A DNA stretch of 64,000 nt from Candidatus Nomurabacteria bacterium. Its GTDB lineage: Bacteria > Patescibacteriota > Saccharimonadia > JAGOAT01. The stretch lies in assembly GCA_020639315.1 (NCBI GenBank), contig JACKGM010000001.1:82511-146510 (forward strand), read 5' to 3'. The position numbers and the translations under genes are program-made. Below, one piece after another: positions 20,157 through 64,000 of this stretch. A model generated the notes under the pieces. That model did not search any database. It was given only the letters and a program-made list of their open reading frames with translations, and was not told where the DNA came from. Each line of letters starts with the position of its first letter. The stretch's first letter is position 1.

Positions 20157-20168
20157 AGTTTTAATATT

Positions 20169-20332
20169 TATAGCAAGTTAAAAACAAAACCAGACTTTTG
20201 ACCCAACTCTAGAGTCTATAAAGCTAGTTTTCTTACTCACCATATCTATGGATATGGCTCTTAAGAAGAACTACCTTTCTAGTTCTCTATAGTACAGCTC
20301 AAATTGTCCGGTTTTGCTTTGAGCTTGCTATA
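20169..20332. mobile_element. Family-B MITE (inverted orientation relative to 15161-15326)
   Basis: TATAGCAAGTTAAAAACAAAACCAGACTTTTGACC ... GGTTTTGCTTTGAGCTTGCTATA. Confidence 0.75.
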
Positions 20333-30475: not shown

Positions 30476-32618
30476 CACTTCTCCTAGTATATGGTATCCA
30501 AACTCCGAAGACCGAACCACCTTCTGGACTGATAGGTGATCTAAAAATCACATTGCCATAATGGATTCTAGCGATTTCTCGTACTAGGTATATACCTAGC
30601 CCATTACCATCTGGTCTGACTGTCTTGGCATTGCTGGCTCGGTAAAATTTAGTAAATAGTTGCTTTTGTTTGCTCTCAGGTACCCCAATCCCAGTATCAG
30701 TGACATAAAAAGCTAGGTATTTACGACGAGGAGCGATTGCTTCTCCACCTAGAGACCCCAGCTGACGAAGTTGGCTACCAGTCAAGACTTTTGCTGATAC
30801 CCTGATCTGACCTCGGTCAGTATACTGAATTGCATTATCTATCAGATTGATTACTACTTGCCTCAGTTTGCCACCATCAGCAAAGATCTTGATTGGCTCT
30901 GGCAAATCAAGTATTAGATCCAAACCTTGCTTGATTGAAACTTTCCGATAGTGATACTCTTCCTCGACCATAGCACCAAAATCAAAGCTAGCTTTACTAA
31001 TCACCAATCTACCTTGAGCCAATCTAGAAGTAGCGAGCAGGTCCTCCAATAACTGGTTCATGTTTTGACCAGCTTGATTGATCTGACTGAGGATCTGCTT
31101 TTGCTCTGAGGTAATATGACCAAACTCTCCGTCAACCAACATCTCACTATACCCCCTGATCGTAGTGAGTGGAGTTCTAAGCTGATGTGATGCGATCGAG
31201 ATAAACTCATCCTTACTTTTGTCCAAGGCCTTGAGCTTTTCTAGGGTATCTTTCAGACGGTAATTAACCTTGGCATTATCTAGGGCAACCGCCAAATCTC
31301 CAGCTACTATTTCAATCGTTTGATAGTCATTTTCGGTATATATATCGCGACTCACTTTTTGACCAAGCACAATATGTCCGACTAGTTTACCCTTAAGAAT
31401 CATTGGAAAAATCAGTTCTGCCCCCTGACTCTTTAATTGATGCAAGGTAGCAGTATCCAAAATATGATCGACAAATATCACCTCATCCTTCAGGTAATGC
31501 CAATTCTTGGTATTAAAAATCTTATAATTAGTTGCATGGCTAAATGCAATCCGATTATGCTCATAGACAATTATCTGCAGATTCTCAAGTCCCATCTGGT
31601 CTACTATGACCTTTGCAGTATCCTTGATCATGGCTTCAAGCTTGAGATCTCTTGCTAAAATCCTACTGACTTCTCCAATCAATTGACCAGGATAGTAGTG
31701 ATAATGGTAAAACCACTTATAAGTATTTTTTTCAAAAAATCCAAGCATCGGCTGAAATAGTACGGCCAAGATAATAATGATCGGAATGAAGGCTAAGCGC
31801 TCAGGAGTAGTCAGCTTATGATCAAGACCAATTAAGCTTCCTAGATAATAACTTGCAAATAAACTGTAGATAATTGCTAATACAATGACTGCTACGCTAA
31901 AAGCCAAAGACCTACTAAAGATTAGTTTGAGATCGAATATCTTGTTTCTGAGGATTACATAAGAGTTGACAATCACCATCCCCGCCATTACAAATAATCC
32001 GATTTGACTGACCCAACCGTCGTTGATTAGGCTTGGCAAGACCAAGTTGGTCAAGACTACCAGGCTAATCCCGGTAGCATAAGTGGTCAGCATTACCTTG
32101 ATCTGAATCTTTTTGACATTTTCGACAGTATCCATTGCCCTGAGTAAATTTCTAATCGAAGGCAAAAGGACTGCAAACAAAATCACCACAAAGCTCCAAT
32201 AGTATCTACCCTTTTGGTCTACCAAAAACCCATCTTGATTCTGATAGCCTGCGACTACCTGATCAGTCAAGAGAATAGCCGAGTAAACCAATCCAAAAAT
32301 CCAAAGTTTGATCTTGCCAAGCCGGCTAAAGGGTTTGATTTCTCCCAAGTAAGCCCGACTCATTCCATAAAAAGCAATGATTGATAAAAACCCAAAAACA
32401 AATGTCAGGCGATTAGCAAAAATCGTGATCTGATCGCTAATAAACAAGCTTGCTACCAATGTAGCAACCTGCCAAAGCCCTCCAGTCAAAGCAAAGCCTA
32501 GAAACCAATGTGAAAGTCTACGATTCATCCCCCGCTTGAATACTAATCCACCAAAAACAAAGAGGATTAAAACTGGGATAATCGAAGTGATGACTATCTG
32601 ATTCACTTGACCCACCAC
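30468..32618 (-). CDS. Sensor histidine kinase HK2 (same architecture, diverged paralogue)
   Basis: H-box SHQLRTPLTTIRGY, NLIDNAIQYT, DTGIGVP, GNGLGIYLV. An alternative start GTG 32606 would give a GTGA overlap with the HK3 stop. Confidence 0.85.
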   Translation of the reverse strand: MVGQVNQIVITSIIPVLILFVFGGLVFKRGMNRRLSHWFLGFALTGGLWQVATLVASLFISDQITIFANRLTFVFGFLSIIAFYGMSRAYLGEIKPFSRLGKIKLWIFGLVYSAILLTDQVVAGYQNQDGFLVDQKGRYYWSFVVILFAVLLPSIRNLLRAMDTVENVKKIQIKVMLTTYATGISLVVLTNLVLPSLINDGWVSQIGLFVMAGMVIVNSYVILRNKIFDLKLIFSRSLAFSVAVIVLAIIYSLFASYYLGSLIGLDHKLTTPERLAFIPIIIILAVLFQPMLGFFEKNTYKWFYHYHYYPGQLIGEVSRILARDLKLEAMIKDTAKVIVDQMGLENLQIIVYEHNRIAFSHATNYKIFNTKNWHYLKDEVIFVDHILDTATLHQLKSQGAELIFPMILKGKLVGHIVLGQKVSRDIYTENDYQTIEIVAGDLAVALDNAKVNYRLKDTLEKLKALDKSKDEFISIASHQLRTPLTTIRGYSEMLVDGEFGHITSEQKQILSQINQAGQNMNQLLEDLLATSRLAQGRLVISKASFDFGAMVEEEYHYRKVSIKQGLDLILDLPEPIKIFADGGKLRQVVINLIDNAIQYTDRGQIRVSAKVLTGSQLRQLGSLGGEAIAPRRKYLAFYVTDTGIGVPESKQKQLFTKFYRASNAKTVRPDGNGLGIYLVREIARIHYGNVIFRSPISPEGGSVFGVWIPYTRRSDG

Positions 32619-34834
32619 CCAAAGGTCGAACCTTGACCATTACTGACTGGGGAGGAGAAAAAGATTCCTCCTCCGTGATCTTCTGTCACTCTCTTGACTA
32701 GATAGATACCTAGACCTGTGCCATCACTTCTAGTTCTTTGGGCATTGTCTGCTCGATAGAATTTAGAGAAGAGTTTGGCTTGTTTGTCAGGAGGTACACC
32801 GATACCAGTGTCTGTCACCTGAAAGACTGGGTAGAGGACACTCTCTAGGTCCCCACTGAAGTCTGGCTTGGAAGCGATGTCTGAGGATTGGATGATTGCT
32901 TTTAATTCGCTTACGCTTAGAAGCTTAAGAGTTAGCTTGATTGTTCCCTCTTGGGTATAGTAGATAGCATTATCAATTAGATTCATCACTGCTTGACGGA
33001 TTTTGGCTTTGTCTAAAGCTTGAGGGGGGATGTCTTCAAGGTCTGTTACTAGCCTTAACCCCTTGTCCTCAATACTAGGGATTAGATTCTCTAGCTCTTG
33101 CTTGATTAGTTCCTTGAGGTCTACTGCTTCTCTCTGGATGAAGAATCGATCTTGGGAGATTCTTGAGACATTGAGTAGGTCGTTGATGGTAGAATCCATA
33201 TTGCCGACAGTGGTCATAATCCTTCTAGCAGCCATTGTTTGATCTGAGGTAGCCTTACCTAGCTCTCCGGTGATAAAGAGGTCACTATAGCCCCTAATCG
33301 TAGTGATTGGGGTCTTTAGTTGATGAGATGCCATTGAGAGGAATTCATCCTTGGCTTTGTCTAGAGCTCTTAGGTTCTTGTTGGCAGTGCGGAGTTTTTC
33401 GGTAGCAGACTTAACTTTATGCTGGAGAGTGACATTGAAGTCTTCGATTTTAGCTACTGCTAGGGCATTGTCTAGGGCGATTGCTAAATCATTTGAAACA
33501 ATTGAGAGAGTGGAGTAATCTAAGCTATTGTAGATGTCACCACTTCTCTTTCCGCCTAAAAGTAAGTAGCCATTGAGTTTTTTGTTGTTTACTAGGGGGA
33601 AGATCATACTGAGGCTATTTTTCTGCATGAAAAACTTTTTGTCGCTCTCAGTCAACTCGTCATAGACCGCAGGTTCTTTACCGAAGAGTTGGGGTACTTG
33701 ACTAATCTCACCATATGATCTGAATAGTCCCTTCTTGCCTGATTTCATAAAGTTTTGGTTGTTTCTAAAGTATTCTTGACCATCATCGTCTAAGACTAGT
33801 ATGTTACCTCTCTCGGTTTTGATCGTAGTGTAGATCAGGGCTAGAGTCTTACTAGCGATTGGGGCAAGCTTGTAATTGGAAGAATAGACATCTCCTAGCT
33901 TAGTCAATAGAGCTTGAGCATCATAACGATTTCTAAAGAATAGTTGATCGGTCAATCTCTCAAAGAACTTTCTTAGGATTGGGAAGGTCAGGGCTAGGAG
34001 GGTGGCTAGGAGGATGTAAGTTGCCTGCTGGATTGGAGAAATCTCCCGACCGAGTGGGAATATCCAGAGAGTTGCCCCATAGCCTATGACTATGAATAGG
34101 ATTGCAATTAGGGTGAGAGTGAGGTAGTAGAATAGTGCCCGGACGGTCCATTTGTTGATGTCAAATAGCTTATATTTAGCAATGCTATAACTTGTACTAC
34201 CAACAAGCACAATAGAAAATAGTGGACCAAGTTTAGATAAAGCCCAGTTGCCGGTGATGATTGGTATTATGCCATTTGTAATAGACGCAAAAAAAGCAAA
34301 AATAACCGTTCCGATGATTATATATTTAATCTGATTTTTCTTATCATCATATATCGTATCCAAAGACCTATACCCATTAATAAGGTTTCTAAAAAAAGCT
34401 ATTAAGAAAACCACCAAAGTACCTATATAAACTATATATAGATTATTAAACTCTGGATGGAAGCCAGTATTATCCACGCTTGCTCCAATAATCATAAGGT
34501 CAGAGAAAGCAAGGATACAGGCTAGTATCGAAGAGGTTAAAATAATAACCCTATCATACCTAGATAGAACATTATATATAAATACTTTTGAAAAACTCCA
34601 AATCAATAGTACTAAAAAGTACGCCGAAAAAAAAGCTACTCTGTTAAAAAAATACTTTAACTCAAAGGTGCTAGCAAAGTCTGTATAATAGTTACTGATT
34701 ATCCACACACTAGTAGCTATCGAAAAAATAAAATATATAATATAGTTTATTCCTTTTTGATTCCTAATATATGTAAAGTAACCCAACAGAGAGTTTAGTA
34801 GGGATATCACTATAACCAATAAGAATAACACCAT
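32603..34834 (-). CDS. Sensor histidine kinase HK3 (distinct polytopic sensor; cytoplasmic module identical to HK1)
   Basis: N-terminal ~270 aa are unrelated in sequence to HK1 but equally polytopic. From YILLATLLALTFPILRKFF onward identical to HK1. Confidence 0.85.
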   Translation of the reverse strand: MVLFLLVIVISLLNSLLGYFTYIRNQKGINYIIYFIFSIATSVWIISNYYTDFASTFELKYFFNRVAFFSAYFLVLLIWSFSKVFIYNVLSRYDRVIILTSSILACILAFSDLMIIGASVDNTGFHPEFNNLYIVYIGTLVVFLIAFFRNLINGYRSLDTIYDDKKNQIKYIIIGTVIFAFFASITNGIIPIITGNWALSKLGPLFSIVLVGSTSYSIAKYKLFDINKWTVRALFYYLTLTLIAILFIVIGYGATLWIFPLGREISPIQQATYILLATLLALTFPILRKFFERLTDQLFFRNRYDAQALLTKLGDVYSSNYKLAPIASKTLALIYTTIKTERGNILVLDDDGQEYFRNNQNFMKSGKKGLFRSYGEISQVPQLFGKEPAVYDELTESDKKFFMQKNSLSMIFPLVNNKKLNGYLLLGGKRSGDIYNSLDYSTLSIVSNDLAIALDNALAVAKIEDFNVTLQHKVKSATEKLRTANKNLRALDKAKDEFLSMASHQLKTPITTIRGYSDLFITGELGKATSDQTMAARRIMTTVGNMDSTINDLLNVSRISQDRFFIQREAVDLKELIKQELENLIPSIEDKGLRLVTDLEDIPPQALDKAKIRQAVMNLIDNAIYYTQEGTIKLTLKLLSVSELKAIIQSSDIASKPDFSGDLESVLYPVFQVTDTGIGVPPDKQAKLFSKFYRADNAQRTRSDGTGLGIYLVKRVTEDHGGGIFFSSPVSNGQGSTFGWWVK
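32611..34018. repeat. 1408-bp direct repeat, copy 2 (3' part of HK3)
   Basis: See 28255-29662. The last three codons and stop differ just outside the repeat (GTG AAA TAA versus GTC AAG TGA). Confidence 0.85.
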
Positions 34835-37603: not shown

Positions 37604-37854
37604 ATGTCGGACCTAACTGTCCACAAGGCAAAAACCCATTTATCGAAAATCCTTCACCAAGTAGACCAAGGAAAAGAGTTCACTATCTACCGAGGTGACC
37701 AGCCAGTAGCCTTACAAACCTCGATCCCTAAACACAAAAAAAACAGCGTTCACCCGGTCTATGGCAAGACCCAGACAGTCCTATTAGCCCCGATCAACAG
37801 CTAGAGAGTCCTGACAATGCTGATACTATCATAGCTGAAATGTTCAATTCATGA
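37604..37854 (+). pseudogene. Phd/YefM-type antitoxin, frameshifted in an A8 run
   Basis: N-terminus MSDLTVHKAKTHLSKILHQVDQGKEFTIYRGDQPVA. Adding one A to the A8 run 37736-37743 restores ...GLWQDPDSP...AEMFNS*, ending in TGA 37852-37854, which forms ATGA with the toxin start. Confidence 0.6.
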
Positions 37855-38239
37855 ACAAGTACTTATTGGATACTCATATTCTGCTCTGATGGCTCTATGA
37901 TAGCAATAAACTTTCCAAAGATCATAGAGGGATTATTACCGACCCGATCAACAATGTTTTTTCTCAGCTATTAATATCTGGGAGATACTCTTAAGCTACA
38001 AGCTTGGTAAGCTGAAATTAACCGACTCAAATATTGATTCTTTAGCCAATCTTAGCTCCCTAACAGACCTACAAGAACTTAGCCTATCTACCAGCCACTT
38101 AGTGACCTTCCAGGAGATTGATTTCAAATATAATGACCCTTTTGACAACATCCTAATCTCCCAAGCAATAGCAGAAGATCTGACCCTACTAACCGTAGAC
38201 CGGAATATTCTTGACCAAGGTCTAGCCAAGACCTGCTAG
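37851..38239 (+). pseudogene. vapC: PIN-domain VapC-type toxin, inactivated (nonsense plus frameshift)
   Basis: MNKYLLDTHILL*WLYDS (TGA at 37887-37889, where family members have Trp). Frameshift in the T6 run 37957-37962. The shifted frame reads FFSAINIWEILLSYKLGKLKL...DPFDNILISQAIAEDLTLLTVDRNIL, the typical VapC C-terminus. Confidence 0.7.
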
Positions 38240-38436: not shown

Positions 38437-38598
38437 TATAGCAAGCTCAAAACAAAACCGGACAATTTGAGCTGTACTATAGAGAACTAGAAAGGTAGTT
38501 CTTCTTAAGAGCCATATTCATAGATATGGTGAGTAAGAAAACTAGCTTTATAGACTCTAGAGTGGGGTTAAAAGTCTGGTTTTGTTTTTAGCTTGCTA
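38437..38598. mobile_element. Family-B MITE inserted into a fragment of a family-A arm
   Basis: The flanks GGAATTTAGTGGTA and CAAGTCAGTGTGTTGGGTCTGTAAC correspond to the family-A arm GGAATTTAGTGGTAAGTCAGTGTGTTAGGTCTATAG. Confidence 0.7.
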
Positions 38599-38602
38599 CA
38601 AG

Positions 38603-40861
38603 TCAGTGTGTTGGGTCTGTAACTACATACATGATGGTTAATGCCAATCTAATACCCCGGTCAAAGCCATCGACTCGGCTTGGGTTATCTTTATATGTCT
38701 CTTGATGTAATCTTATAAGATCGTAAATATACCTAGACAATACTGGGTCGCTATCTACTAACCTAGATATCTCCATATAGTCATAGCTCAATATAACTGA
38801 TAACTTTTCCATATTTACCTGATCAATATCTAAATGTTCTAATCCTACCTCTGACCTGCCAAAATAATGACTAGACAAATGAGCTTCACTATGCAACCTA
38901 AGGTCGGCTGACTTTTCTAATGCAAGCTTCTCAAGGGCGGGACTTAAAGCGTGGTGTTTTCGCAAAAAACAAAATATTTCCATCGCCCCAAGGTAGCCCA
39001 CTTTAAACCCCTCTATGTATTGTTTTATATCCTTAGAATCTATTGGTAAATCCAGCCTACCAAGCATCTTTAAAAACTTACTCTCCCTCTCCAATATTTC
39101 CCCCAAAAATCGGTATTTACCAAATAAAGCTATTGTACTCTCACTAAGTCTTATCTCGTCAGGTCTAGTTAAATAATCATTGGCTAGTAGGTTACTATCA
39201 GACGAATCATAGTGATGGTCATAGAGCTCCATTAGCAGCTTAGGTTCTCGAGTCAAATCTACTATAACCCTTTCTAGCCCCCGGAATAATCCAGGGTCAC
39301 TTTCATCAGAACAAGTCACATTGATTTCAAGCCGTTTACCTGTAATATTTAGTAGTATCCTCAACCCAGGTGTGCTATCGATATCAAGCAAGCAAAAGAT
39401 TACAAATTTACTTTTCTTTGGCTCAATTTCAGATATAAGATGAACCAAATGCTCTAGCATCGCACCCAACTGTCTCCTATCTATAATATCAGGAATCGAA
39501 TTATCAAACTCAATAGCCACATTATCCCAATGATATTCACTATTAATCTTACCCTTACCTTGATCTATAACCTCTAAAATTCTACCCCCTAGATCAATAA
39601 CCTCAAACTCTGACCCGTGTACAAGTCCTTGTCCTAATTCCTGACATAAACCACCCCTAAGCTCTTCTATATATAATCCCAAAAAGTTAACCCCTAGATC
39701 AAACCCTGTTTCGAGTGCACCCAACGAACTCTCAACCTCTAGTTTAGCCTGTGTTCCTAGTACCCACTTGGCCAAATCAGTATACTTTGTGAGACTTAAT
39801 TGGCTCAATGTGACTTGATAGCTGTTCAAAATAAAGTCTTCCCTGTTGACCAACTCGCTCACCTCCTTTATCTTCTCAGGATTGAGCAACCAGCCAAACC
39901 CGGGATACTCATTACTTTTTGTGCGTTCTGTACTTAATTCTTCGGCATTAAGCAATAAAGCCATTGTCGCTACGCCCAAAGTAAAGCCGTGAGTAATACT
40001 CAATTCTTCTAATTCAGGACTCTCTATCTCACAGCAACTTTCATAGTAACTTTTCCAGACCTCAAACCATCCGCTTGCATATATTCCATGTCCTATTTCC
40101 CAGATAGTCTCGATGCTAGATGGTTCAAGGTTAAACCCAAGGGCGCATCTACTCAAATCATGCGAAATCCCTGAATCTTCGGGAGGCAAGCCTGAAGTAC
40201 CCGAGGTTTCGCCTAAGTAGGGTTTATCCTTAGATAACCTATCTACACTTCTTGCTTGTATTGTTTTCTGTTTATCTTGCAAATCGATCAAAACCTTCAA
40301 TAAGCAAAAGGCTAGATCAACCCCTTGTAAGTATGACAGTAAATTCTCTTCCTTAGTGCCTAGAATACTGACTCCGGTTTGAGCCTCAAACGCATCTTTG
40401 ATAGCTCTTGCTATATAAGGAAATCTAGAGCTAAGATCCATTGAGTTTAGTACTTCGCTGAAGCTTAGATCCATATCTTTCCCACCTGATAAGCCTAACT
40501 CTGCCCTCAAACTACCACAATCCATAATAATCTGCTCAACCGATAGCCCCTTATCCTCTGCTAAGATATAGGACATCAACCCAAGCCCAAATCTATAACC
40601 ACTACCGACCAACCCATCTGAGTCTTCTCCTAACAAATCATTACTAAGCTGTTCCCACAGCTTACCCCAGCCTGATCCTAGTAATTCTTCACTCATTGAA
40701 TAAATATCTTGATAGACCTTTGGAGTAAACTCAGCTTCAGACTTTGAATTTGGGTACTCTTCCATCTTGCTACTCAACCTATATCCACTGAAACCTAGAC
40801 CCCAATGCATTGTTAAAAAAATCAGATATTGATTCTCTAAAATCATAGAATTGTTGAACAA
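38603..40861 (-). CDS. Large acidic repeat protein (752 aa), unassigned family, paralogue of 41249-43567 and 43592-44275
   Basis: Recurring module: GSGYRFGLGLMSYIL, THGFTLGVATMALLL, ETGFDLGVNFLGLYI, IEGFKVGYLGAMEIF, VDGFDRGIRLALTIMYVV (C-terminal). No TM or signal peptide. The start is uncertain (TTG 40861, or ATG 40846/40810/40765). Confidence 0.65.
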   Translation of the reverse strand: MFNNSMILENQYLIFLTMHWGLGFSGYRLSSKMEEYPNSKSEAEFTPKVYQDIYSMSEELLGSGWGKLWEQLSNDLLGEDSDGLVGSGYRFGLGLMSYILAEDKGLSVEQIIMDCGSLRAELGLSGGKDMDLSFSEVLNSMDLSSRFPYIARAIKDAFEAQTGVSILGTKEENLLSYLQGVDLAFCLLKVLIDLQDKQKTIQARSVDRLSKDKPYLGETSGTSGLPPEDSGISHDLSRCALGFNLEPSSIETIWEIGHGIYASGWFEVWKSYYESCCEIESPELEELSITHGFTLGVATMALLLNAEELSTERTKSNEYPGFGWLLNPEKIKEVSELVNREDFILNSYQVTLSQLSLTKYTDLAKWVLGTQAKLEVESSLGALETGFDLGVNFLGLYIEELRGGLCQELGQGLVHGSEFEVIDLGGRILEVIDQGKGKINSEYHWDNVAIEFDNSIPDIIDRRQLGAMLEHLVHLISEIEPKKSKFVIFCLLDIDSTPGLRILLNITGKRLEINVTCSDESDPGLFRGLERVIVDLTREPKLLMELYDHHYDSSDSNLLANDYLTRPDEIRLSESTIALFGKYRFLGEILERESKFLKMLGRLDLPIDSKDIKQYIEGFKVGYLGAMEIFCFLRKHHALSPALEKLALEKSADLRLHSEAHLSSHYFGRSEVGLEHLDIDQVNMEKLSVILSYDYMEISRLVDSDPVLSRYIYDLIRLHQETYKDNPSRVDGFDRGIRLALTIMYVVTDPTH

Positions 40862-41094
40862 ATTCTATCCATTGTGTAGTAACCTCCCCTGTTATATCAT
40901 AGTTCATAGACTCACTCATATCTGTATTATACAATAGTACTTCGTAAACTACAAAAATAATTAAACCTTTGTTCTGGCTTCTGTACTCGTTAAGATTTAT
41001 GGTTCGAAGAAGCCTTCTTGATTTTTAGTATTTCTATCAGAGGGTCAGCGAATTTTACCTCGAGAATCTCGAGGTTGAGTTGCCAGAAATGCAA

Positions 41095-41240
41095 AAATAC
41101 TGGATCCCCCGTAAGTTCTCCGAACTTCGGAGGATGACAATGCCCTCTGTATGTCATCTTCCAAATTCCTGTAGGAAATTATGGGAGATCCAGCATTTGA
41201 ATTGAAGCCTCAGAAATGCAAAATACTGGGTCCTGACTAT
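41095..41240. repeat. Hairpin-cassette doublet plus a partial unit
   Basis: Reverse unit 41098-41140, then ATGCCCTCTGTA, then forward subtype-2 unit 41150-41195. Partial reverse unit near 41224. Confidence 0.8.
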
Positions 41241-41248
41241 CAATTTTC

Positions 41249-43567
41249 TCAATCATCAGATTTATCTTGATCCTCAAATAGCATGATAGATGCAAGGGTA
41301 AATATCAACTCTATGCCTCGATAGAATCCATTTGCAAAACCCTCATGCTTTCGCAATTTATCAAAAAATGACTGGTCTTCCTCGCCAATATTACCATGGG
41401 CATAGTCCAAAGCATAAAAAACAGCTTCCCTAAAATTAAAATCTTCATTAAAATCTTCCAGAAGGTCTCCAATATTATCAAAGTCATCTAACAGTATTCC
41501 AGTAATACTATCTAAATCTGAAAGGTTATCCCCATGAAATTCCACTACTTCATCACCTTGATCAGCTTCTTCTGGATCTGGATCACTTTCGTCCTCATAA
41601 TCTGAATTGATCATATTAAGATATAAATTGTTGATAGATTGTTCATCAATATCAAATTCTTGGATACCTTGCTCGAGTATCTCCAGGTGTCCGAAATGTC
41701 TCAATATATAAAGCCCAAAGTAAATCCCATAATTCCTAGCTTCAATATACGCTTGAAGATACTCGCGTAAGTGCCCATTCCTATTCAAATCAAAAATTGC
41801 TTCTACCATAGAAGTATCTATCTCTAGCAAGCTATTTAATACTTGTTGGCTACCGATATAATGAGCTGCCCAACCAACAACCCTCCCGTCTTCCTTGACA
41901 AACTCCCGCCATAGCCTAATATCTTCCTCTCTATACTCATAGCTCCCTGGGTCTAGCAAAAGCTCCACCCCTGGCCATATATTTTCTCCAAAGTCCACCA
42001 AGCTATCAGGTAGCTCGGAATTTGATTGTTCAATCTCGTACCTATAAATGGCATAGACTATTATGAACCCCTGATCCAGCCCATTAAAAAACTCTTCTTC
42101 AATGCCTCCCTCATCATCATAATACTCACTTGGAAAGTACCGACACAAATCTAATACCAAGTGACTCTTCCCCTTTAGGCCAAGCTTTCCAAGAACCATC
42201 TCAAAGTCACATTGTGCCAAGCTACTATTTTGGATTTCAAGGCTTACTCTTTTGATCATATCTTGACTGAAGGTTAATTGATCGACCTTAAGTCTATAAA
42301 CTATAATATCAGTCATCATAGCCAACCCAAGCTCAAATCCTTTATGCCAAAGCTTACTATCTGGCAAAGACTGCTCTCCCAGACCACTACAAACTGATTG
42401 ATAGACTGGATTTGAGTAGGCAAAAAGTGCACCCCTATTATGAAAAAACTGCCTAATACTGACTGGGTCAAATACTGAATCAGACTTATATTCTCTCAGT
42501 ACTTTAGCCAGAGTCAAGACAAACCTAAAACCTCGATCAAACCCTTTGGAAAAATCAGGGATATCATATTCTGGAGAGTCAAGCATTAGACCATTGATTT
42601 TCTGTATTGCAAAATCAAACATAGACTTTAGCCTATCATCTTGGCCCAACAATTGATCGATACTAAAAAAGTCATCTCCCATAGCTAGAATACACCAATC
42701 CAAAAGTGCGGGATCTTCTCCCATTACAATGCTTAGTAGCTCCCCAGTCTGATCGTTTGCCTGATCACGCATCAATACTTTTTTAAATAGATTATCCATA
42801 TATTTCTCACGGGCCTCACTGGCCATCTCTCCAGGGCTAGTAAGCTCTAAATCTTGAGCAAAAGACCCTAACCTCCCAAGGTGGTGTAAGGCCGCTACTG
42901 CAAAGTAAATTCCCTTTAGACTGCCGTACTCATAATTGTACCGCCTGTCTTTATCCACTTTTGGTACTTCATTCATTTGATCAAGACCTAGAAGGTACCA
43001 GCTAATAAATTCTCCAAGTAAAGGATAGTGGTGTGATAGCATATCACCTGTAAGTCGCATCTTTGCGGCCTCATTTTCCGACAAGAAAAAATCCTCAACA
43101 AATTGTATATACCCCGATAAAAACCTATGTTGATTGTAAAAATCCTGAAAGTAATCTGGCACCGTAGATAAGTCTAAAACTCTATGATCTGATAAATTGC
43201 TCAGCAATTCTAGGTCACCAACTTGAGAATTTGATATATCTAGGCTGACTACTCTAGTCTGATCAAGCCTCATCAGTACCAAGATCTTCTGTTCAACTGC
43301 AGGCTCTGGATTAGGACAAATCAGATCAAAATTATTAATCTCAGGGTAAATTTTACTCAAAATCTCTGCCAAGCTTACAAAAGTGGCAATAACTTGCTGG
43401 ATATCAACATTATTAGATACTACTGAAGGGTCAAAGTTGTACTCAATCTTATCCATCTCAGGAAAGTAAGGGGTTACTGCGTCCTTGTTGCCCATTGCCA
43501 GATATGCGTAGGTTGTTTCTATGCTGTGAAGATCACCCTCACGATCTGAAATATCTCTCTCCACCAC
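41249..43567 (-). CDS. Large acidic repeat protein (772 aa), unassigned family
   Basis: GTG start with an AAGGGGA Shine-Dalgarno. Modules LKGIYFAVAALHHLG, SKGFDRGFRFVLTLAKVL, HKGFELGLAMMTDIIVY, FNGLDQGFIIVYAIYRY, RNYGIYFGLYILRHFG, EGFANGFYRGIELIFTLASIML (C-terminal). Acidic run DYEDESDPDPEEADQGDEVVEFHGD. Confidence 0.7.
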   Translation of the reverse strand: MVERDISDREGDLHSIETTYAYLAMGNKDAVTPYFPEMDKIEYNFDPSVVSNNVDIQQVIATFVSLAEILSKIYPEINNFDLICPNPEPAVEQKILVLMRLDQTRVVSLDISNSQVGDLELLSNLSDHRVLDLSTVPDYFQDFYNQHRFLSGYIQFVEDFFLSENEAAKMRLTGDMLSHHYPLLGEFISWYLLGLDQMNEVPKVDKDRRYNYEYGSLKGIYFAVAALHHLGRLGSFAQDLELTSPGEMASEAREKYMDNLFKKVLMRDQANDQTGELLSIVMGEDPALLDWCILAMGDDFFSIDQLLGQDDRLKSMFDFAIQKINGLMLDSPEYDIPDFSKGFDRGFRFVLTLAKVLREYKSDSVFDPVSIRQFFHNRGALFAYSNPVYQSVCSGLGEQSLPDSKLWHKGFELGLAMMTDIIVYRLKVDQLTFSQDMIKRVSLEIQNSSLAQCDFEMVLGKLGLKGKSHLVLDLCRYFPSEYYDDEGGIEEEFFNGLDQGFIIVYAIYRYEIEQSNSELPDSLVDFGENIWPGVELLLDPGSYEYREEDIRLWREFVKEDGRVVGWAAHYIGSQQVLNSLLEIDTSMVEAIFDLNRNGHLREYLQAYIEARNYGIYFGLYILRHFGHLEILEQGIQEFDIDEQSINNLYLNMINSDYEDESDPDPEEADQGDEVVEFHGDNLSDLDSITGILLDDFDNIGDLLEDFNEDFNFREAVFYALDYAHGNIGEEDQSFFDKLRKHEGFANGFYRGIELIFTLASIMLFEDQDKSDD

Positions 43568-43591
43568 TTCTATTGTCCCCTTATTTAATCC

Positions 43592-44275
43592 TTAATAACT
43601 ATAATCTGGTGTCACTCCTAGCCTATCTTGGTCTTTTAGATAGACCAAGATACTGAGTGTAAAATTGAGCCCCCGATAGAACCCATCTGAATCGAGATTA
43701 TTACTATCTTGTGCACTTTGATATGCTCTATCAATAGCATTTGAAAGTAGCCTAGCCCTAATGAGGCAATCCTGCCCCGCCTTTAGTAAATTTTTTACTA
43801 GATCTCTGGTTTCACCAATATTATTACGCAATGATACACTTGCATTATCTTGATCTACTAGATATTCTTGCAGCGGTAGTCTTGCCTTCTGCTCCTTAAG
43901 CCATTCGTTATATAGTCTATCCACCTCATCTTGCTCTATAATAACAGTATCAAAATCTAATAAAATACTAGCGATCCCTAGACCAAATTCAAAGCCAAGC
44001 CCGTGACCCCTGAGGTAAGTATTACTATCAAAGCCAGTGGATATATTATTCTTATCACCATAGATATCAAAAGTTTCTTCCACAAACTGATGATCTTTGG
44101 CGGCTAGCAAGCCTAGCTCATCTATACCATTAATACTTTGGGCGATCTTGGCGATCCAGCCATTGTCATCATCAAAATCAAAAAAATCTTTAATGCTTTT
44201 ATAAAGAGCGTCAAGTATCTCCCCCTCCTCTCGCAAATCTTTGCCTCTTAAATGCATGGTATCCATACTTATCAT
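43592..44275 (-). CDS. Acidic repeat protein (227 aa, two modules), unassigned family
   Basis: AAAGGAG Shine-Dalgarno. Modules LRGHGLGFEFGLGIASILL and SDGFYRGLNFTLSILVYL (C-terminal). Lies 24 nt upstream of the 772-aa paralogue and 36 nt downstream of galU. Confidence 0.7.
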   Translation of the reverse strand: MISMDTMHLRGKDLREEGEILDALYKSIKDFFDFDDDNGWIAKIAQSINGIDELGLLAAKDHQFVEETFDIYGDKNNISTGFDSNTYLRGHGLGFEFGLGIASILLDFDTVIIEQDEVDRLYNEWLKEQKARLPLQEYLVDQDNASVSLRNNIGETRDLVKNLLKAGQDCLIRARLLSNAIDRAYQSAQDSNNLDSDGFYRGLNFTLSILVYLKDQDRLGVTPDYSY

Positions 44276-44311: not shown

Positions 44312-45181
44312 CTAAACCTTACCTAGATACTCCCTCAGAGCATCAGCAATCGTCGGATCCTTGAGACCCAAGCCAATCTGAGCCTCGATTAGACCTAGCT
44401 TGTTACCACAGTCATACCAATCACCCTCAAAATCCAGCGCCTGGAGTACTCCACCTTGCTCAAGATACTTAGCCAGTGCATCCGTATGATACAGTTCATT
44501 ATTACCCATAGGTTCCATCTCCCTGACTAGTTGTAAGACTTCAGGAGTGAGAATCATCCGACTCTGAGCCGCAATATCTGATACTACATCCTCAAGAGCT
44601 GGCTTTTCGATAATGCTCTCTACCCGGATAATCTTATCATCAATATTATGACCTACAATCATCCCTTTGCTAGGCATTACAGTCCGATCAACTTTTTTGG
44701 CAGCAATCACCGGGGCACTATACTGAGCATAAACATCGATCAGTTGTCTGAGTGCTGGCACCTCAGAGTCTACAATATCATCACCAAACATCACTGCTAC
44801 TGCCTCACCTTTACCGACAAAAGGCAAAGCAACCTTCAGGGCATCACCAGGACCTCTCTGTTCTCCTTGACGCAGGTAAGCAAAAGTTGCCATCTCAGAG
44901 ATGCCCCTAATCTCAGCCAACAGTTCAAGCTTGCCTGAAGTCCTGAGCTGGGCCTCTAGATCTCGATTCCGGTCAAAATAGTCCTCGAGTGGCCGCTTAT
45001 TGTTGGAAGTGACAAAGATGATCTCCTCGATTCCACTCGCTACTGCTTCCTCCACTATATAATGGATGATCGGCTTATCCACTACATGGAGCATTTCCTT
45101 GGGGCTAGATTTGGTAGCTGGTAACATCCTCGTGCCATAGCCAGCAGTCAAAATAATTGCTTTCTTGATATTACTCACCAT
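44312..45181 (-). CDS. galU: UTP--glucose-1-phosphate uridylyltransferase
   Basis: AIILTAGYGTRMLPATKSSPKEML (GxGTRxLPxTK) and VEKP-like IEKP motif. Confidence 0.9.
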   Translation of the reverse strand: MVSNIKKAIILTAGYGTRMLPATKSSPKEMLHVVDKPIIHYIVEEAVASGIEEIIFVTSNNKRPLEDYFDRNRDLEAQLRTSGKLELLAEIRGISEMATFAYLRQGEQRGPGDALKVALPFVGKGEAVAVMFGDDIVDSEVPALRQLIDVYAQYSAPVIAAKKVDRTVMPSKGMIVGHNIDDKIIRVESIIEKPALEDVVSDIAAQSRMILTPEVLQLVREMEPMGNNELYHTDALAKYLEQGGVLQALDFEGDWYDCGNKLGLIEAQIGLGLKDPTIADALREYLGKV

Positions 45182-46628
45182 CCTCCTTGATCTTAACTAT
45201 TGGAAATAATGTTGCCTCCCGGATCGAGATATTACTCAGAAAACTAAATAGCCTCTCGCTCATCCCAAACCCACAAGTCGGTGGCATCCCATACTCGAGT
45301 GCTCTGACAAAATCACGATCATGCATTTGGGCTTCATTATCCCCACCTTCTCTGAGCTCAGATTGTTTGATAAATCTCTGCTCCTGATCGATCGGGTCAT
45401 TGAGCTCACTATAGCCATTGCCTAGTTCACTACCCGCCAAAATTACCTGGAATCTTCTCACCGTACCAGGACGCTGATCATCTGACTTGGCCAAGGGGGA
45501 GACTACTTCAGGGTGACCAGTCAAAAAGACTGGTCCACTAATACCCTTGCGTACCTGTTTCCAGACGATATCAATCAAAGTCTCGCGCGCTGCTTCAGAC
45601 TCAAATCCAACCTTTCTTGCCCTCAGCCAACCCCTGATCTTGGACAGTTCACAATTGATCACATCCAGTCCAGACACTCGCTCAATCTCAGTCAGATAAT
45701 CAATCTTCTCCCACTGATCGGCCAAATCAAACCTGTGCCCATAGACTTCAAAATCCGTTTGGCCAAAAGTATCCTTGGTTACCTTAATATAGAGCTCTCT
45801 GACTAGCTCCATCCCTTGCTCTTCATCTGCATAGGCCTGGTAATATTCAAGCTGGGTATAATCTTGGAGATGTTCCCGACTCATCCCCTCATTGCGAAAA
45901 ATCCTACCAATCTCATAAGTCCTCTCAAATCCAGCCACCATCAACTTTTTCTGCCAAAGCTCACCCGCCGATATTCGTAAATAAACATCTTGATCCAGTG
46001 CATCATAGTGCGTGATAAAGGGGGTAGCACTTGCTCCACCGGCTACCGTCTCGAGTACTGGAGTCTGCACCTCGACAAATCCCCGATCATCCAAGAATTC
46101 CCTAATCGATCGCCAAAATTGGGCTTTTTGATAAAAGCGTTTTCTGACCTCAGGGCGCATCAAGTCAAGATAACGCAGACGGTATCTCAGCTCTTCATCC
46201 TTGATCCCATAATACTCACTGGGCAAAGGGCGAAGGGCCTTAGTCAAAATCCTGATTCGCTTGAGTCTAAGCGATATCTGACCCTTTTGGGTTTTAAATA
46301 CTTCACCGTAAGCTTCAATAAAATCACCGACATTGGTCAGACCAAGTATCTCCCAGCTATCTGGATCTACTACTGAAGCTGAGCAAAAAAGCTGGATCTT
46401 GCCAGACTGATCTTCGAGGTCGACAAAGCTAAGCTTGCCATGACCCCTTTTGCTGATCACCCTACCGGTCAATGAAACCAGACTACCCATTAACTTCTCA
46501 AAGTTATCAATCACCGTCTGGTTGGGATAATCTTTCTGGCTATCTGCTGGATAGGGGTTGATACCTTGATCGATTAGACTCTGATAATTCTCTTTGTACG
46601 AAGCTAATACTTCATCTTCTCTACTCAT
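45171..46628 (-). CDS. lysS: Lysine--tRNA ligase (class II)
   Basis: OB-fold N-domain. Motif 2 YEIGRIFRNEG. Motif 3 region GMSERLFSFL. Overlaps thrS by 8 nt and galU by 11 nt. Confidence 0.95.
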   Translation of the reverse strand: MSREDEVLASYKENYQSLIDQGINPYPADSQKDYPNQTVIDNFEKLMGSLVSLTGRVISKRGHGKLSFVDLEDQSGKIQLFCSASVVDPDSWEILGLTNVGDFIEAYGEVFKTQKGQISLRLKRIRILTKALRPLPSEYYGIKDEELRYRLRYLDLMRPEVRKRFYQKAQFWRSIREFLDDRGFVEVQTPVLETVAGGASATPFITHYDALDQDVYLRISAGELWQKKLMVAGFERTYEIGRIFRNEGMSREHLQDYTQLEYYQAYADEEQGMELVRELYIKVTKDTFGQTDFEVYGHRFDLADQWEKIDYLTEIERVSGLDVINCELSKIRGWLRARKVGFESEAARETLIDIVWKQVRKGISGPVFLTGHPEVVSPLAKSDDQRPGTVRRFQVILAGSELGNGYSELNDPIDQEQRFIKQSELREGGDNEAQMHDRDFVRALEYGMPPTCGFGMSERLFSFLSNISIREATLFPIVKIKEDGE

Positions 46629-48474
46629 TTTTACCTCTACTTTCAGCTAGACTAGATAAATAATTTGCCAATTGATCAAACTCGATTGTCTGCTCCTCGC
46701 TCTTGTCACTAAACTTCTTGCGCAAGCTAATTGTTCTATTCTCTTGGTCCTTTTCACCGACAATGATTTGAACTGGTATCTTATCCTGTTCGGCTTGCCT
46801 AATCTTCTTGCCTAGTGACTCTGCCCGATCATCGACCTTATAACGCAGTTGGTTAGCTTGCAAGGGTTGATTAAGGGCTAGACTACTTAGCACTGATTCG
46901 ATCTCCCCGACATAAGCTCCTGCTTTATCTGTTACTATCAATATCCTAACCTGCTCTGGTGCTAACCAAAAAGGTAGGTATCCTCCTGTCTTTTCTAGCA
47001 AAAATCCAATAAACCTCTCAAAAGACCCCATAATGGCTCGATGAATCACGATTGGGGTCTGTTCCTGATTCTCCTGATCAATGTATTTAAGACCCATCCT
47101 CCCAGGTACTAAGATATCGATTTGACTGGTTGCAATCGTATCCTCTTTGCCCATTACATTACGGATCTGAACATCAAGCTTCGGTCCATAAAATGCAGCC
47201 TCCCCTTCGGCTTCGACAAATTCTGAACCAGTCTCAAATAAAGCTTCCCTGATCTGATCAGCAGCATACTGCCACTTGTCTCCGTCCTCGGTAAACTTGT
47301 CTTTGCCAAAATCTGGCAAGGACAACCTAAACCAGTAATCCTCGATCTCAAACTCTTGATAAACCTCCGAGAATAAATCTATTACTTTGATAAACTCGGC
47401 CTTAAGCTGATCTGGCGTGACATAAATATGAGCATCGTTTTGAGTAATCGGACCGCGTACACGGATTAGTCCTGTCAGTGTTCCAGATAACTCATAGCGG
47501 TAGAGTGGGCTGGCTTCTGCTAACCTCAGAGGCAGATCTCGGTAACTCTGGACTAATCTTTCATATACCTGGTGGTGGTGAGGGCAATTCATTGGCTTGA
47601 GATAAAATCTGTTGCCTTCCTCATCTACTTCCGTACAGTACATATTGTCTAGATAATAATCAGCGTGACCACTAGCCTGATACAATGCTTCATGAGTGAG
47701 GACTGGAGTCGAAATATATTGATAGCCCTTGGCTTGTTCGAGCTGACGCATATAGCGAATCAAAAGATCTTTGATCTGTTCACCCCTTGGTAACAGGATT
47801 GGTAATCCTGCTCCTACCTTATCAGAATGCATAAAGAGTTTGAGCTTTTCTCCCAGTACTCGGTGGTCTCGCTTCTTGGCTTCTTCTAGTCTGACAAAAT
47901 ATTCTTCTAGCTCTTGATCACTAGCAAATGCTACTCCATAGACTCGTTGAAGCTGAGGATTCTTGTTGTCACCTCGCCAATAAGCTCCTGCGACCCTAGT
48001 CAGCTTAAACTTGCCGACCTTGCCGGTACTGGCTTCATGGGGTCCTCCGCAAAGGTCGATGAATTGTTCATCTCCAGTGATATAAACTCCTACTAAGTCC
48101 TTGCCCTCAAAAGCTTCTTGACCAGGCTTGGTAGTACCCCGTTGCTCCAAATCGGCTATTAGTTCCAGCTTAAAAGGCTGATCGGCAAAAAAATCTTTGG
48201 CTCTAGAAATACTCCAGTCCTCCTGTCTAAACGGTAGATCTGCCTTGATAATCTGATGCATTCTCTTGGTAATCTTGGCTAAATCTTTTTGTTGGAGTTG
48301 CTGACCATCTGGCAATAGTACATCATAATAAAAGCCATCCTCGATCACTGGGCCAATTCCTAGCTCCGTACCTGGCCAGAGTTCGATAATCGACTGCGCC
48401 ATAATATGGGCGAGACTATGACGCATCGGCCTTAGGCGTTCCTGCTCTACTTGGTATTCTTTTTGAGATTTCAT
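46621..48474 (-). CDS. thrS: Threonine--tRNA ligase
   Basis: HSLAHIMAQ (SAD domain), class II motifs, HRAIMGSFERFIG, and a C-terminal anticodon-binding domain. Confidence 0.95.
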   Translation of the reverse strand: MKSQKEYQVEQERLRPMRHSLAHIMAQSIIELWPGTELGIGPVIEDGFYYDVLLPDGQQLQQKDLAKITKRMHQIIKADLPFRQEDWSISRAKDFFADQPFKLELIADLEQRGTTKPGQEAFEGKDLVGVYITGDEQFIDLCGGPHEASTGKVGKFKLTRVAGAYWRGDNKNPQLQRVYGVAFASDQELEEYFVRLEEAKKRDHRVLGEKLKLFMHSDKVGAGLPILLPRGEQIKDLLIRYMRQLEQAKGYQYISTPVLTHEALYQASGHADYYLDNMYCTEVDEEGNRFYLKPMNCPHHHQVYERLVQSYRDLPLRLAEASPLYRYELSGTLTGLIRVRGPITQNDAHIYVTPDQLKAEFIKVIDLFSEVYQEFEIEDYWFRLSLPDFGKDKFTEDGDKWQYAADQIREALFETGSEFVEAEGEAAFYGPKLDVQIRNVMGKEDTIATSQIDILVPGRMGLKYIDQENQEQTPIVIHRAIMGSFERFIGFLLEKTGGYLPFWLAPEQVRILIVTDKAGAYVGEIESVLSSLALNQPLQANQLRYKVDDRAESLGKKIRQAEQDKIPVQIIVGEKDQENRTISLRKKFSDKSEEQTIEFDQLANYLSSLAESRGKNE

Positions 48475-62800: not shown

Positions 62801-64000
62801 ACTCTTAGAGAAATAGGCTTTGCAATTGGTACAGGAATAGCTATTGCCGACTGGATCTGTGCCATTGAGATAGAGGTAGTCTAAGACTGTCTTGTCAGGG
62901 ACTTTGTCTACTACCCAAGTCTGAGTAGTAGGGTTGATACCGATGTTTTGGAAATGGAGAGCATAGTGGATATTGTCTCCAGTGGGGATTAGGGATTCAG
63001 TGACTTCTTTGTAGGTGATGAGACTGGCAACACCGGGGTAGATTTGGGTTCGAATTGTATCAGTCGAGCCTACCACTGGACAGTTGGCATTGTCTTGATA
63101 AGTAGTGGTCGGAGTAATATCAATGTTTTTGTATGGCAATGTCCCAGCTGACACTAGGTACTTGATAGTAATAGTCTCAGAACTACCAGCAGGTAGATTG
63201 CCTAGGTTGATAGTCATCTGATAGGGTGAGCTATAGATCTTGCTTAGGTCGACTGAGCCGGTAGTAGTATCGACATTGACTAGCTTGAGATAGGTATTGG
63301 CTCCTCCGACATTGATTACTGGAGTCGGTATGGTGACTACGGTATTTAAGGCAGTTTCAAATAGGGTTGAGAGCTTGATCGTGTATTCAATTTCTCCAGG
63401 AGGAGTCACGCCAACTGGACCACTAATATCCGTAATCACCCTCGGTGTGACTGGACTAATCAGAGCTGGATCAGACTGGATATTTTGGAGTGGGGTAGCA
63501 AGGTCGCTGGGCAATTGAGGTGCGGTCAATGGATCAGAGAAAGGTAGCTCACTGCCACCTTCATAAGCATAAAAGAGAGCTTGATTGCTAAGAGTACGAA
63601 TACTACAGGTCGTATCTTGCATCGCCTTGACTGTTATCTTGGCAGTGGTAGAAGTAGGCTGATTGGCACATCTGCCACTAGTAGGAGCGTCAAATAAGTT
63701 GCTATTGAGACAATCTACCCGAAATGCCACCCAGGTCACATCACTAGGATCAGCGGGTGGGTTCAGTAAATAATCAATCCAGCCAGTCATTACTCCAGTC
63801 AGGGGATCGTATCCTGGGGGATCTGTCATACTTCTATCTACTTCGTCTGTACGATACCAAATACTACCATTGACTCCGTTGGGTAAGCTAGCATTGACGA
63901 AATCGGTACTGTGGGGTTGGTTGTTTACCGTATCTCCATCGGCTAAACTCTTCGGTATCTTGTCAATCGTGACAAGATCACCCAAGGTAGTAGTCCCACT
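50846..64000 (-). CDS. Giant cell-surface protein (more than 4379 aa; N-terminus outside the window) with DUF11, FG-GAP, SdrD-B/Cna-B-like and beta-propeller-like repeats and an LPXTG-type anchor
   Basis: A single ORF that is still open at nt 64000. Many DUF11-type modules (for example DLAISKQV...[27 protein letters not shown]). Six FG-GAP repeats, four SdrD-B-like modules, a PT/PE linker, and a C-terminal LPNTG + hydrophobic + RRQRRVE signal. Confidence 0.9.
   Translation of the reverse strand, partial: [4384 protein letters not shown]
50849..50953 (-). other. Sortase sorting signal (LPNTG, TM helix, basic tail)
   Basis: Codons 50953-50939 read LPNTG, followed by [23 protein letters not shown] and RRQRRVE*. 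Confidence 0.85.
52318..52470 (-). repeat. Intragenic ~150-bp exact duplicate, copy 1
   Basis: Encodes [50 protein letters not shown]. The same DNA string occurs at 53280-53433. Confidence 0.8.
53280..53433 (-). repeat. Intragenic ~150-bp exact duplicate, copy 2
   Basis: See 52318-52470. Confidence 0.8.
55880..57640 (-). other. Four SdrD-B / Cna-B-like modules within the giant protein
   Basis: [30 protein letters not shown]..., [30 protein letters not shown]..., [13 protein letters not shown]...[10 protein letters not shown]..., and [12 protein letters not shown]...GIEGVDVFL...[15 protein letters not shown]. Confidence 0.7.
59020..59995 (-). repeat. Six tandem 162-bp (54-aa) FG-GAP repeats with high DNA identity
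   Basis: The CCAGTCGTAGAGGTAGGCGG phase marker lies at 59204, 59366, 59528, 59690 and 59852 (exact 162-nt spacing). Peptide unit: DG..[42 protein letters not shown]. Confidence 0.9.

Follow-up and report, generated by a model that had tools for sequence, protein, structure and literature searches.

The closest described counterparts of the three genes studied here are helical repeat proteins of the TPR, Sel1-like and HEAT type, proteins with GxxxG or glycine-zipper helices, and the unannotated protein families of Patescibacteria. GxxxG is an established motif of tight helix packing in soluble and membrane proteins alike (PMC12470825), and in FliH/YscL it forms long uninterrupted AxxxG(xxxG)m runs within one helix (PMC2674601). 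The AGNOSTOS survey reported 54,343 lineage-specific unknown clusters in Patescibacteria, 45,788 at species level (PMC9132574). We analyzed a stretch of 64,000 nucleotides (nt) from a Candidatus Nomurabacteria bacterium (GenBank assembly GCA_020639315.1, contig JACKGM010000001.1, positions 82,511 to 146,510), referred to below as the window, in which three adjacent minus-strand open reading frames (ORFs), here named A, B and C, encode acidic proteins that share a recurrent glycine-marked helix.

Like TPR, Sel1-like and HEAT proteins, A, B and C are, by prediction, mostly helical, carry a recurring short helix motif with small packing residues and appear to have acquired multiple units by internal duplication. 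Unlike them, their units are irregular, i.e., 68-135 residues long instead of 34-47, the conserved entity is a 140-residue domain bounded by motif helices, and B and C contain a small alpha/beta subdomain. With GxxxG and glycine-zipper proteins they share a hydrophobic helix that starts with glycines at i and i+4, together with a proposed close helix-helix contact. The run G-x-G-x-G-x-x-x-G-x-G in A (approximately residues 89-99) resembles a glycine zipper; otherwise, there is one GxxxG per helix. FliH/YscL proteins differ in this respect, as the single GxxxG motifs of A, B and C are scattered through large proteins, and no match to the FliH/YscL/HrpE family was found in Pfam or NCBIfam. Finally, A, B and C resemble the AGNOSTOS unknowns in being a family from Patescibacteria metagenome-assembled genomes (MAGs) that lacks annotation as well as relatives beyond the species, but differ from these in the unusual length of B and C (approximately 750-770 residues), the three-gene paralogous array and the identifiable domain and motif architecture. 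Given that species-restricted unknown families reach tens of thousands in the phylum (PMC9132574), one more orphan family is unsurprising; the size, tandem arrangement and clear internal architecture of A, B and C are somewhat unusual.

Glycine-marked modules and a duplicated 140-residue domain

An initial annotation had placed ORFs of 227, 772 and 752 residues downstream of galU on the same strand, with gaps of 36, 24 and 387 nt; the ORF list and arithmetic on its coordinates gave the same values. The three ORFs are real coding genes. All of the peptides quoted in that annotation as examples of a recurring module were found in the three proteins, and the motif G[FY]xxG[FILV]x[FLMI] occurred eight times, as compared with 0.07 expected, with none of 5000 composition-preserving shuffles reaching eight. 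A gap-free, 31-residue hidden Markov model (HMM) built on ten copies gave ten matches of 24-36 bits (two in A, four in B and four in C), and scored no higher than 6.5 bits elsewhere in the 185 six-frame ORFs of the window, that of the giant protein described below being no exception. In order to avoid circularity, HMMs were also built from the modules of two proteins and used to search the third. The omitted protein was still found, at 17-23 bits, whereas no score in 300 shuffles exceeded 10.1 bits. The possibility that the module might lack statistical support was thus not borne out by the motif shuffles, the specificity of the HMM or the leave-one-protein-out searches.

In the module alignment (A1), the glycines at i and i+4 constitute a GxxxG motif, and hydrophobic positions 2, 6, 8/9, 12/13 and 15/16 share one broad helical face. 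The earlier counts of two, six and at least five modules can be reproduced when the degenerate GxxxG/A copies B219, B614, C180 and C618 are included, but the copies robustly detected by the HMM number two, four and four. None of the degenerate copies was scored by the module HMM; B219, B614 and C618 were supported by a longer domain alignment. As had been noted, a module lies near each C-terminus, i.e., at residues 198-213 of 227 in A, 747-762 of 772 in B and 732-747 of 752 in C. The proposal that copies some 70-130 residues apart represent a repeat unit did not hold. Motif spacing was irregular (68-135 residues), and the 60 residues upstream of the modules were mutually unrelated (mean z 0.06), with the exception of those preceding C88 and C292 (z 4.8). 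Because these upstream flanks are unrelated, the proteins are not built from a regular repeat of 70-130 residues. Regular tandem units of approximately 33-47 residues were likewise not found in A, B or C, the inter-motif sequences being unrelated.

Comparison of longer regions indicated that the real repeated entity is a domain of approximately 140 residues with a GxxxG-type helix at either end; A and C have one copy each and B has two. Residues 39-357 of B were colinear with residues 446-747 of C (BLASTP E=2e-5, 22% identity), and the second half of this block recurred in A and, with an hhalign E of 5.5e-5, C-terminally in B. Smith-Waterman z scores among the four domain copies ranged from 2.4 to 8.2, with five of the six pairs scoring at least 4.3 and the lowest value being that of A against B205-362. 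In the four-way alignment (A5), the domain begins with Y-x(6)-G-[IYF]-x-x-[GA], which leads into a hydrophobic helix, and closes with G-F-[DY]-R-G and a further hydrophobic helix, the latter corresponding to the module of the initial annotation. Invariant columns, in the numbering of the first sequence, were Y8, G15, L56, D68, Q69, L102, D106 and G-F-x-R-G at 138-142.

The three proteins combine these elements differently. A has an N-terminal helical region followed by one domain. In B, a region of approximately 170 residues with the alpha/beta subdomain precedes one domain; two isolated module helices come next, and then another domain with an acidic insertion. The first part of C holds one degenerate and three strong module helices, all isolated, and is followed by an alpha/beta-containing region as in B and one domain. 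The N-terminal part of C is predicted to be helical, the whole protein has four strong and two degenerate modules, and the C-terminal 300 or so residues are homologous to the N-terminal part of B. The BLASTP match between B and C and the domain z scores agree with the earlier description of A, B and C as paralogues, yet the sequences are very divergent (20-25% identity), which suggests that the family is either older than the species or evolving very fast. The present result is mainly a well-defined orphan paralogue family with a real domain architecture, and it amends the simple picture of a short repeated module.

AlphaFold2 models were obtained for A from its single sequence and for B with one additional row from C, with confidence (pLDDT) values of 36 and 40, respectively. 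Since neither model had a usable alignment and confidence was this low, interpretation is confined to the secondary structure. A was predicted to be all-helical and B to contain a beta-alpha-beta-type subdomain at residues 56-132 or so, with helices beyond it (pLDDT 40). Each of the eight modules of A and B lay inside, or started, a helix of 22-26 residues, and module regions generally ranked with the higher-confidence parts of the B model. An acidic segment of B (approximately residues 654-682) had no predicted secondary structure. A Foldseek search of the PDB with the B model gave no match at E≤0.001; at pLDDT 40, any match would be meaningless.

The proteins are acidic, with isoelectric points (pI) of 4.43 (A), 4.31 (B) and 4.75 (C) and net charges per 100 residues of -7.9, -10.8 and -6.5, respectively. 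In describing them as highly acidic, the initial annotation was correct as to pI (4.31-4.75), but this acidity is not exceptional, as other proteins of the window are equally acidic, i.e., a 181-residue protein at 2263-2808 (-9.4 per 100 residues) and the giant 4379-residue protein (-10.3). The reported lack of transmembrane segments and signal peptides was upheld by weak hydropathy and polar N-termini. No convincing transmembrane segment was seen in A, B or C, for which the best 19-residue Kyte-Doolittle windows scored 1.4-1.75 and contained charged residues, as compared with 3.0 for the neighboring permease; the maxima of A (1.63) and C (1.75) were borderline. No signal peptide was present at the polar N-termini, and the grand average of hydropathy (GRAVY) was negative overall. 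The GC content of the genes (0.38-0.395) was lower than that of thrS, lysS and galU (0.44-0.46). Their GC content at third codon positions (GC3; 0.32-0.37) fell inside the range of other genes in the window and there is, therefore, no clear case for horizontal acquisition.

Searches for relatives

As judged by sequence comparison, A, B and C match no described family. Searches of Pfam, NCBIfam, PADLOC and PHROGs with the three proteins returned sub-threshold noise only (DUF6934, E=0.018; Avd, E=0.13; Cas7, E=0.046), the best PADLOC (E=0.046) and PHROG (E=0.15) values being non-significant. The statement that the module does not belong to the TPR, Sel1, HEAT or ankyrin families was confirmed by hmmscan against Pfam-A, which reported none of these at E≤1 for the proteins or at E≤10 for the four domain copies; at the latter threshold, the four copies had no Pfam match in common. 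PDB sequence searches with the module, B/C and domain alignments (A1, A3 and A5), as well as with proteins B and C, gave nothing significant. The best PDB match was a weak one between C243-282 and consensus TPR chains (E=0.06).

In a word-indexed search of 5.8 billion clusters, B and C matched only themselves. An exhaustive phmmer search of 1.84 billion representatives with C returned C itself and one spurious match. The latter (P0003), a eukaryotic transposase-like repeat protein of 1513 residues, gave 12 matches through its repeated YYWDN against SEYHWDN in C, and was rejected. A 44-residue module profile used in a word-based search collected six candidates only, with no matches among them, so that this negative carries practically no weight. 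Metagenome scans with the region shared by B and C, and with A, were empty. A pattern scan of IMG/VR viral contigs with the domain alignment found nothing, and B had no tblastn match among 50,697 phage records. The clusters at 90% identity contained only sequences of the same species (two NCBI MAGs plus Logan assemblies). As far as current databases show, the family therefore appears to be restricted to one species of Patescibacteria (the candidate phyla radiation, CPR): no homologue outside one lineage was found by these searches, in which, beyond the family libraries, A alone was covered only by the metagenome pattern scan, the large protein libraries having been searched with the single sequences of B and C. 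Given that the paralogues themselves are only approximately 22% identical, relatives at such a distance would be invisible to single-sequence searches.

Among 185,579 GTDB species representatives, the closest GalU was 45% identical to that of the window. Within 22 GalU loci of GTDB representatives, for which up to 10 kb was fetched on each side, no ORF resembling A, B or C was found by phmmer, regular expression or an HMM of the domain alignment. Orphan status is thus probably in part a sampling effect, as the lineage is poorly sampled (GalU at most 45% identical) and the paralogues are deeply diverged. The earlier description of the family as lineage-specific consequently stands in that no relative was found outside the species, but has to be tempered by this sampling effect. 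The best GalU matches were spread over Parcubacteria, Gracilibacteria and Peregrinibacteria, with identities of only 34-37% to Saccharibacteria. The labels of the two MAGs disagree, KC853 being assigned to Candidatus Saccharibacteria and H6792 to Candidatus Nomurabacteria.

Possible functions of A, B and C

The explanation that we tentatively prefer is that A, B and C form a taxonomically restricted family of soluble, cytoplasmic and mostly helical paralogues, acting as non-enzymatic binding or scaffold proteins for basic partners. The proteins would have been built by duplication of the 140-residue domain, the first and last helices of which carry G-[FYI]-x-x-[GA] and then a hydrophobic face. 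These two small-residue helices would be buried core helices, with the glycines permitting close helix-helix packing and so closing each helical bundle, while the variable Asp/Glu-rich helices and loops connecting them would lie on the outside, where their negative charge would suit basic partners. Invariant polar residues of catalytic appearance were not seen, which points to a binding or scaffold role more readily than to an enzymatic one. From the long ORFs with Shine-Dalgarno sequences, the motif enrichment, the domain paralogy, the helix prediction, the lack of transmembrane segments and signal peptides, and the lack of an enzyme match, we infer that GxxxG serves in helix packing and that the proteins reside in the cytoplasm and act as scaffolds or binders. 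Several points weigh against this proposal. Both structural models, on which the supposed fold and helix pairing rest, are of low confidence (pLDDT 36 and 40), and the domain is represented by four copies only. Function is argued mainly from absence, i.e., of a catalytic motif and of a secretion signal, and the thrS-lysS-galU operon context gives no functional clue. Furthermore, acidity is common to other proteins of the window and is, therefore, weak evidence for a specific binding role.

A mostly helical prediction, with many short helices between long ones, would also be expected of very divergent alpha-solenoids of the TPR, Sel1 or HEAT-like type, in which the repeats have drifted past detection and the GxxxG helix is the lineage's version of the repeat helix. 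The weak PDB match of C243-282 to consensus TPR (E=0.06) falls on a segment that reads W..G..Y..G…Y….P, as in TPR. Against this, Pfam detected no TPR, Sel1, HEAT or ankyrin repeat (proteins, E≤1; domain copies, E≤10), and the irregular spacing of 68-135 residues, with unrelated flanks, contrasts with the 34-47 residues of solenoid repeats. In addition, the second glycine of the module lies at i+3 from the aromatic residue, whereas the glycine of the TPR consensus lies at i+4 from its aromatic residue. We consider drifted solenoids to be an unlikely explanation. It seems similarly doubtful that the double-GxxxG domain is, rather than a drifted helical repeat, a previously undescribed fold or domain family, with its acidic multi-domain carriers fulfilling a lineage-specific role in the ultra-small CPR cell, e.g., in sequestering basic proteins of host or phage as decoys or sponges or, once exported, in interacting with the host. 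If the family did prove to have a new fold, or a host-interaction or decoy function, it would provide one concrete, structurally defined example among the many Patescibacteria unknowns, and the conserved G-[FY]-x-x-G helix would be an easy target for mutagenesis. GxxxG is classically a motif of transmembrane helices (PMC12470825) and A, B and C might accordingly be membrane-active or peripheral proteins that enter membranes, or attach to them, by way of their GxxxG or glycine-zipper helices. In keeping with this, the first module of A reads G-x-G-x-G-x-x-x-G-x-G followed by IASILL, and the Kyte-Doolittle maxima of A (1.63) and C (1.75) are borderline. In none of the three proteins, however, was GxxxG found inside a membrane-spanning hydrophobic helix of approximately 20 residues, the best windows (1.4-1.75) including charged residues. 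The hydrophobic stretches are 13-16 residues long with charged residues within or flanking them, scores fall far below that of the transmembrane helix of the neighboring permease (3.0), and GRAVY is negative, making membrane association very improbable.

Many Patescibacteria are episymbionts, and A, B and C could be host-interaction or effector proteins exported by a non-Sec route, with fast evolution under conflict explaining the missing homologues. No relative of C was found among 1.84 billion representative proteins, the paralogues are very divergent, their GC content (0.38-0.395) is below that of the adjacent housekeeping genes (0.44-0.46), and a gene for a giant surface adhesin lies some 6.5 kb upstream. 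Yet there is no signal peptide, no adjacent secretion-system genes were seen, A and B, set off by gaps of only 36 and 24 nt, seem to share a transcript with thrS, lysS and galU, and GC3 (0.32-0.37) is inside the range of the window; poor sampling of the lineage would also explain orphan status. An effector role is thus not one that we would expect. Still less probable, in our opinion, is that the proteins are acidic decoys, i.e., nucleic-acid mimics of the anti-restriction type or immunity proteins directed against a basic toxin or nuclease. Their net charge (-6.5 to -10.8 per 100 residues), the DE-rich segment at residues 655-735 or so of B, and the degraded Phd/PIN pair directly downstream would fit this suggestion, as would the tandem paralogue array, an arrangement typical of immunity gene clusters. 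Nevertheless, PADLOC and PHROGs gave nothing significant, there was no phage match, and neither an adjacent toxin gene nor a Pfam match to an immunity family (SUKH, Imm and similar) was found, the neighbors being aminoacyl-tRNA synthetases, galU and a permease. The charge shows no obvious periodic array and unrelated proteins of the window are similarly acidic. To our knowledge, B and C, at approximately 750-770 residues, far exceed DNA mimics and immunity proteins in size. The least credible proposal is that A, B and C are non-functional, i.e., chance ORFs or decaying pseudogenes. It could draw on the lack of homologues and on the ambiguous start of C, with an out-of-frame ORF of 47 codons upstream. 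ORFs of 2.26 and 2.32 kb at 39% GC would, however, be too long to arise by chance, judging from base composition; ribosome-binding sites are present, and a motif common to three proteins would be lost under neutral decay.

The locus and its surroundings

Genes, domain copies and modules are listed in Table 1. On the minus strand, A, B and C follow thrS (46621-48474), lysS (45171-46628) and galU (44312-45181). Gene A has a GGAG Shine-Dalgarno sequence 7 nt upstream of its ATG and gene B a GGGG sequence approximately 9 nt upstream of its GTG. NCBI calls B as a protein of 771 residues and C as one of 720 residues starting MEEYP (coordinate 40765). The A protein is identical in the two MAGs, and the DNA of the NCBI MAG and the Logan assemblies is 99.95-100% identical to the window; there is, therefore, no polymorphism from which selection could be judged.

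Table 1. Coordinates of the genes, domain copies, homologous regions and modules of the A/B/C locus, in positions of the window. Residue ranges are prefixed by the gene letter; HMM refers to the module model.
Feature	Coordinates	Strand	Evidence or remarks
Gene A	43592..44275	-	227 aa; MCB9834524/MCA9349657; predicted all-helical; one double-GxxxG domain, residues 80-227
Gene B	41249..43567	-	772/771 aa; MCB9834523/MCA9349656; predicted small alpha/beta subdomain (~56-132), helices after; two double-GxxxG domains
Gene C	38603..40861	-	752-aa ORF; MCB9834521 = 720 aa from NCBI start 40765
Domain copy A80-227	43595..44038	-	Smith-Waterman z 4.3-4.5 vs B600-772 and C605-752, 2.4 vs B205-362; alignment A5
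Domain copy B205-362	42482..42955	-	z 8.2 vs B600-772, 6.0 vs C605-752; hhalign E=5.5e-5
Domain copy B600-772, with acidic insertion	41252..41770	-	hhalign, Smith-Waterman, A5
Domain copy C605-752	38606..39049	-	Smith-Waterman, A5
B39-359, ~300-aa region colinear with C446-752	42491..43453	-	BLASTP E=2e-5, 22% identity; alignment A3
C446-752 plus stop codon, counterpart of B39-359	38603..39526	-	BLASTP, alignment A3
Module A94-109, GFEFGLGIASILLDFD	43949..43996	-	HMM; GHGL directly before, glycine-zipper-like run
Module A198-213, GFYRGLNFTLSILVYL	43637..43684	-	HMM
Degenerate module B219-234, GIYFAVAALHHLGRLG	42866..42913	-	GxxxA helix opening domain; aligned with B614 and C618; not HMM-scored
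Module B342-357, GFDRGFRFVLTLAKVL	42497..42544	-	HMM
Module B410-425, GFELGLAMMTDIIVYR	42293..42340	-	HMM
Module B496-511, GLDQGFIIVYAIYRYE	42035..42082	-	HMM
Degenerate module B614-629, GIYFGLYILRHFGHLE	41681..41728	-	Domain alignment
Module B747-762, GFYRGIELIFTLASIM	41282..41329	-	HMM
Module C88-103, GYRFGLGLMSYILAED	40553..40600	-	HMM
Module C292-307, GFTLGVATMALLLNAE	39941..39988	-	HMM; upstream helix like that of C88, z 4.8
Module C386-401, GFDLGVNFLGLYIEEL	39659..39706	-	HMM
Degenerate module C618-633, GFKVGYLGAMEIFCFL	38963..39010	-	B/C BLASTP and domain alignment
Module C732-747, GFDRGIRLALTIMYVV	38621..38668	-	HMM
B-C intergenic region	40862..41248	.	Copies of dispersed 45-nt hairpin element, then TGTATAAT extended -10 (~40924-40931), read off the sequence

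At 40775-40931 on the minus strand, the TGTATAAT extended -10 lies directly upstream of an ATG at 40918 that opens the 47-codon ORF, beginning MSESMNYDITGEVTTQWIEFVQQFYDFRESISDFFNNALG. It is read in a different frame from C, the 5' end of which it overlaps; if the T7 or G4 run were one base shorter, the two would form a single ORF of approximately 771 residues, the size of B. A homopolymer sequencing error that split off an N-terminal extension of C is unlikely, as an independent Logan assembly (SRR12358676) is 100% identical to the window over 38534-41123. Because the sequences are identical, the 5' region of C is probably not an assembly error, and the 47-codon ORF could be a separate small ORF, the result of a real frameshift mutation or a case of programmed frameshifting. 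In view of the hairpin copies and the extended -10 in the 387-nt gap, C is probably its own transcription unit. A scan for promoter and terminator consensus sequences gave counts no higher than expected from shuffling.

Farther upstream of thrS, approximately 6.5 kb from the A/B/C genes, lies a FG-GAP/DUF11/SdrD adhesin gene in which no toxin domain was detected. Its ORF (50846-63985, minus strand) encodes 4379 residues with a pI of 4.05 and FG-GAP, DUF11, SdrD-B-like, SpaA and DUF7619 domains, and the product is presumably a giant surface adhesin. The downstream neighbors are a degraded Phd/PIN pair, a MacB-like permease, an S-adenosylmethionine (AdoMet) decarboxylase, three tandem histidine kinases and PGK. 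Among these flanking genes, which have housekeeping or unrelated roles, no toxin, secretion or defense gene adjoining A, B and C was seen. The Phd/PIN pair consists of a Phd/YefM-like antitoxin ORF of 66 residues (37604-37804, plus strand) and an apparent C-terminal fragment of a PIN/VapC toxin (38102-38239, plus strand). Judged by eye from the translations, these look like the remains of a toxin-antitoxin pair, convergent with gene C. The histidine kinase genes (28247-34834, minus strand) overlap and encode 757, 716 and 743 residues with HisKA and HATPase_c domains, one also having 7TM and GAF domains, and constitute a local paralogue array.

The 45-nt hairpin element (AATACTGGATCCCCCGTAAGTTCTCCGAACTTCGGAGGATGACA-like) occurs at 41096-41140 and at no fewer than 17 other sites, dispersed in intergenic DNA in both orientations, with 97-100% identity. 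These sites are at approximately 0.4-1.4 kb, 13.6-15.2 kb, 21.5-22.05 kb, 25.5-25.85 kb, 26.7 kb, 48.57 kb and 50.64-50.84 kb. A 19-mer of the element, CCAGTATTTTGCATTTCTG, gave eight matches against none expected, and short-read contigs of the same organism (L001 and L024) end inside it. The element looks like a member of a REP/MITE-like family. A second dispersed repeat, of approximately 65 nt, lies at 38534-38600, directly 3' of the C stop codon, with copies at 15258-15322 and 20168-20235 (94-95% identity). Together with the 45-nt elements on its 5' side, this repeat leaves gene C with repeat elements on both sides.

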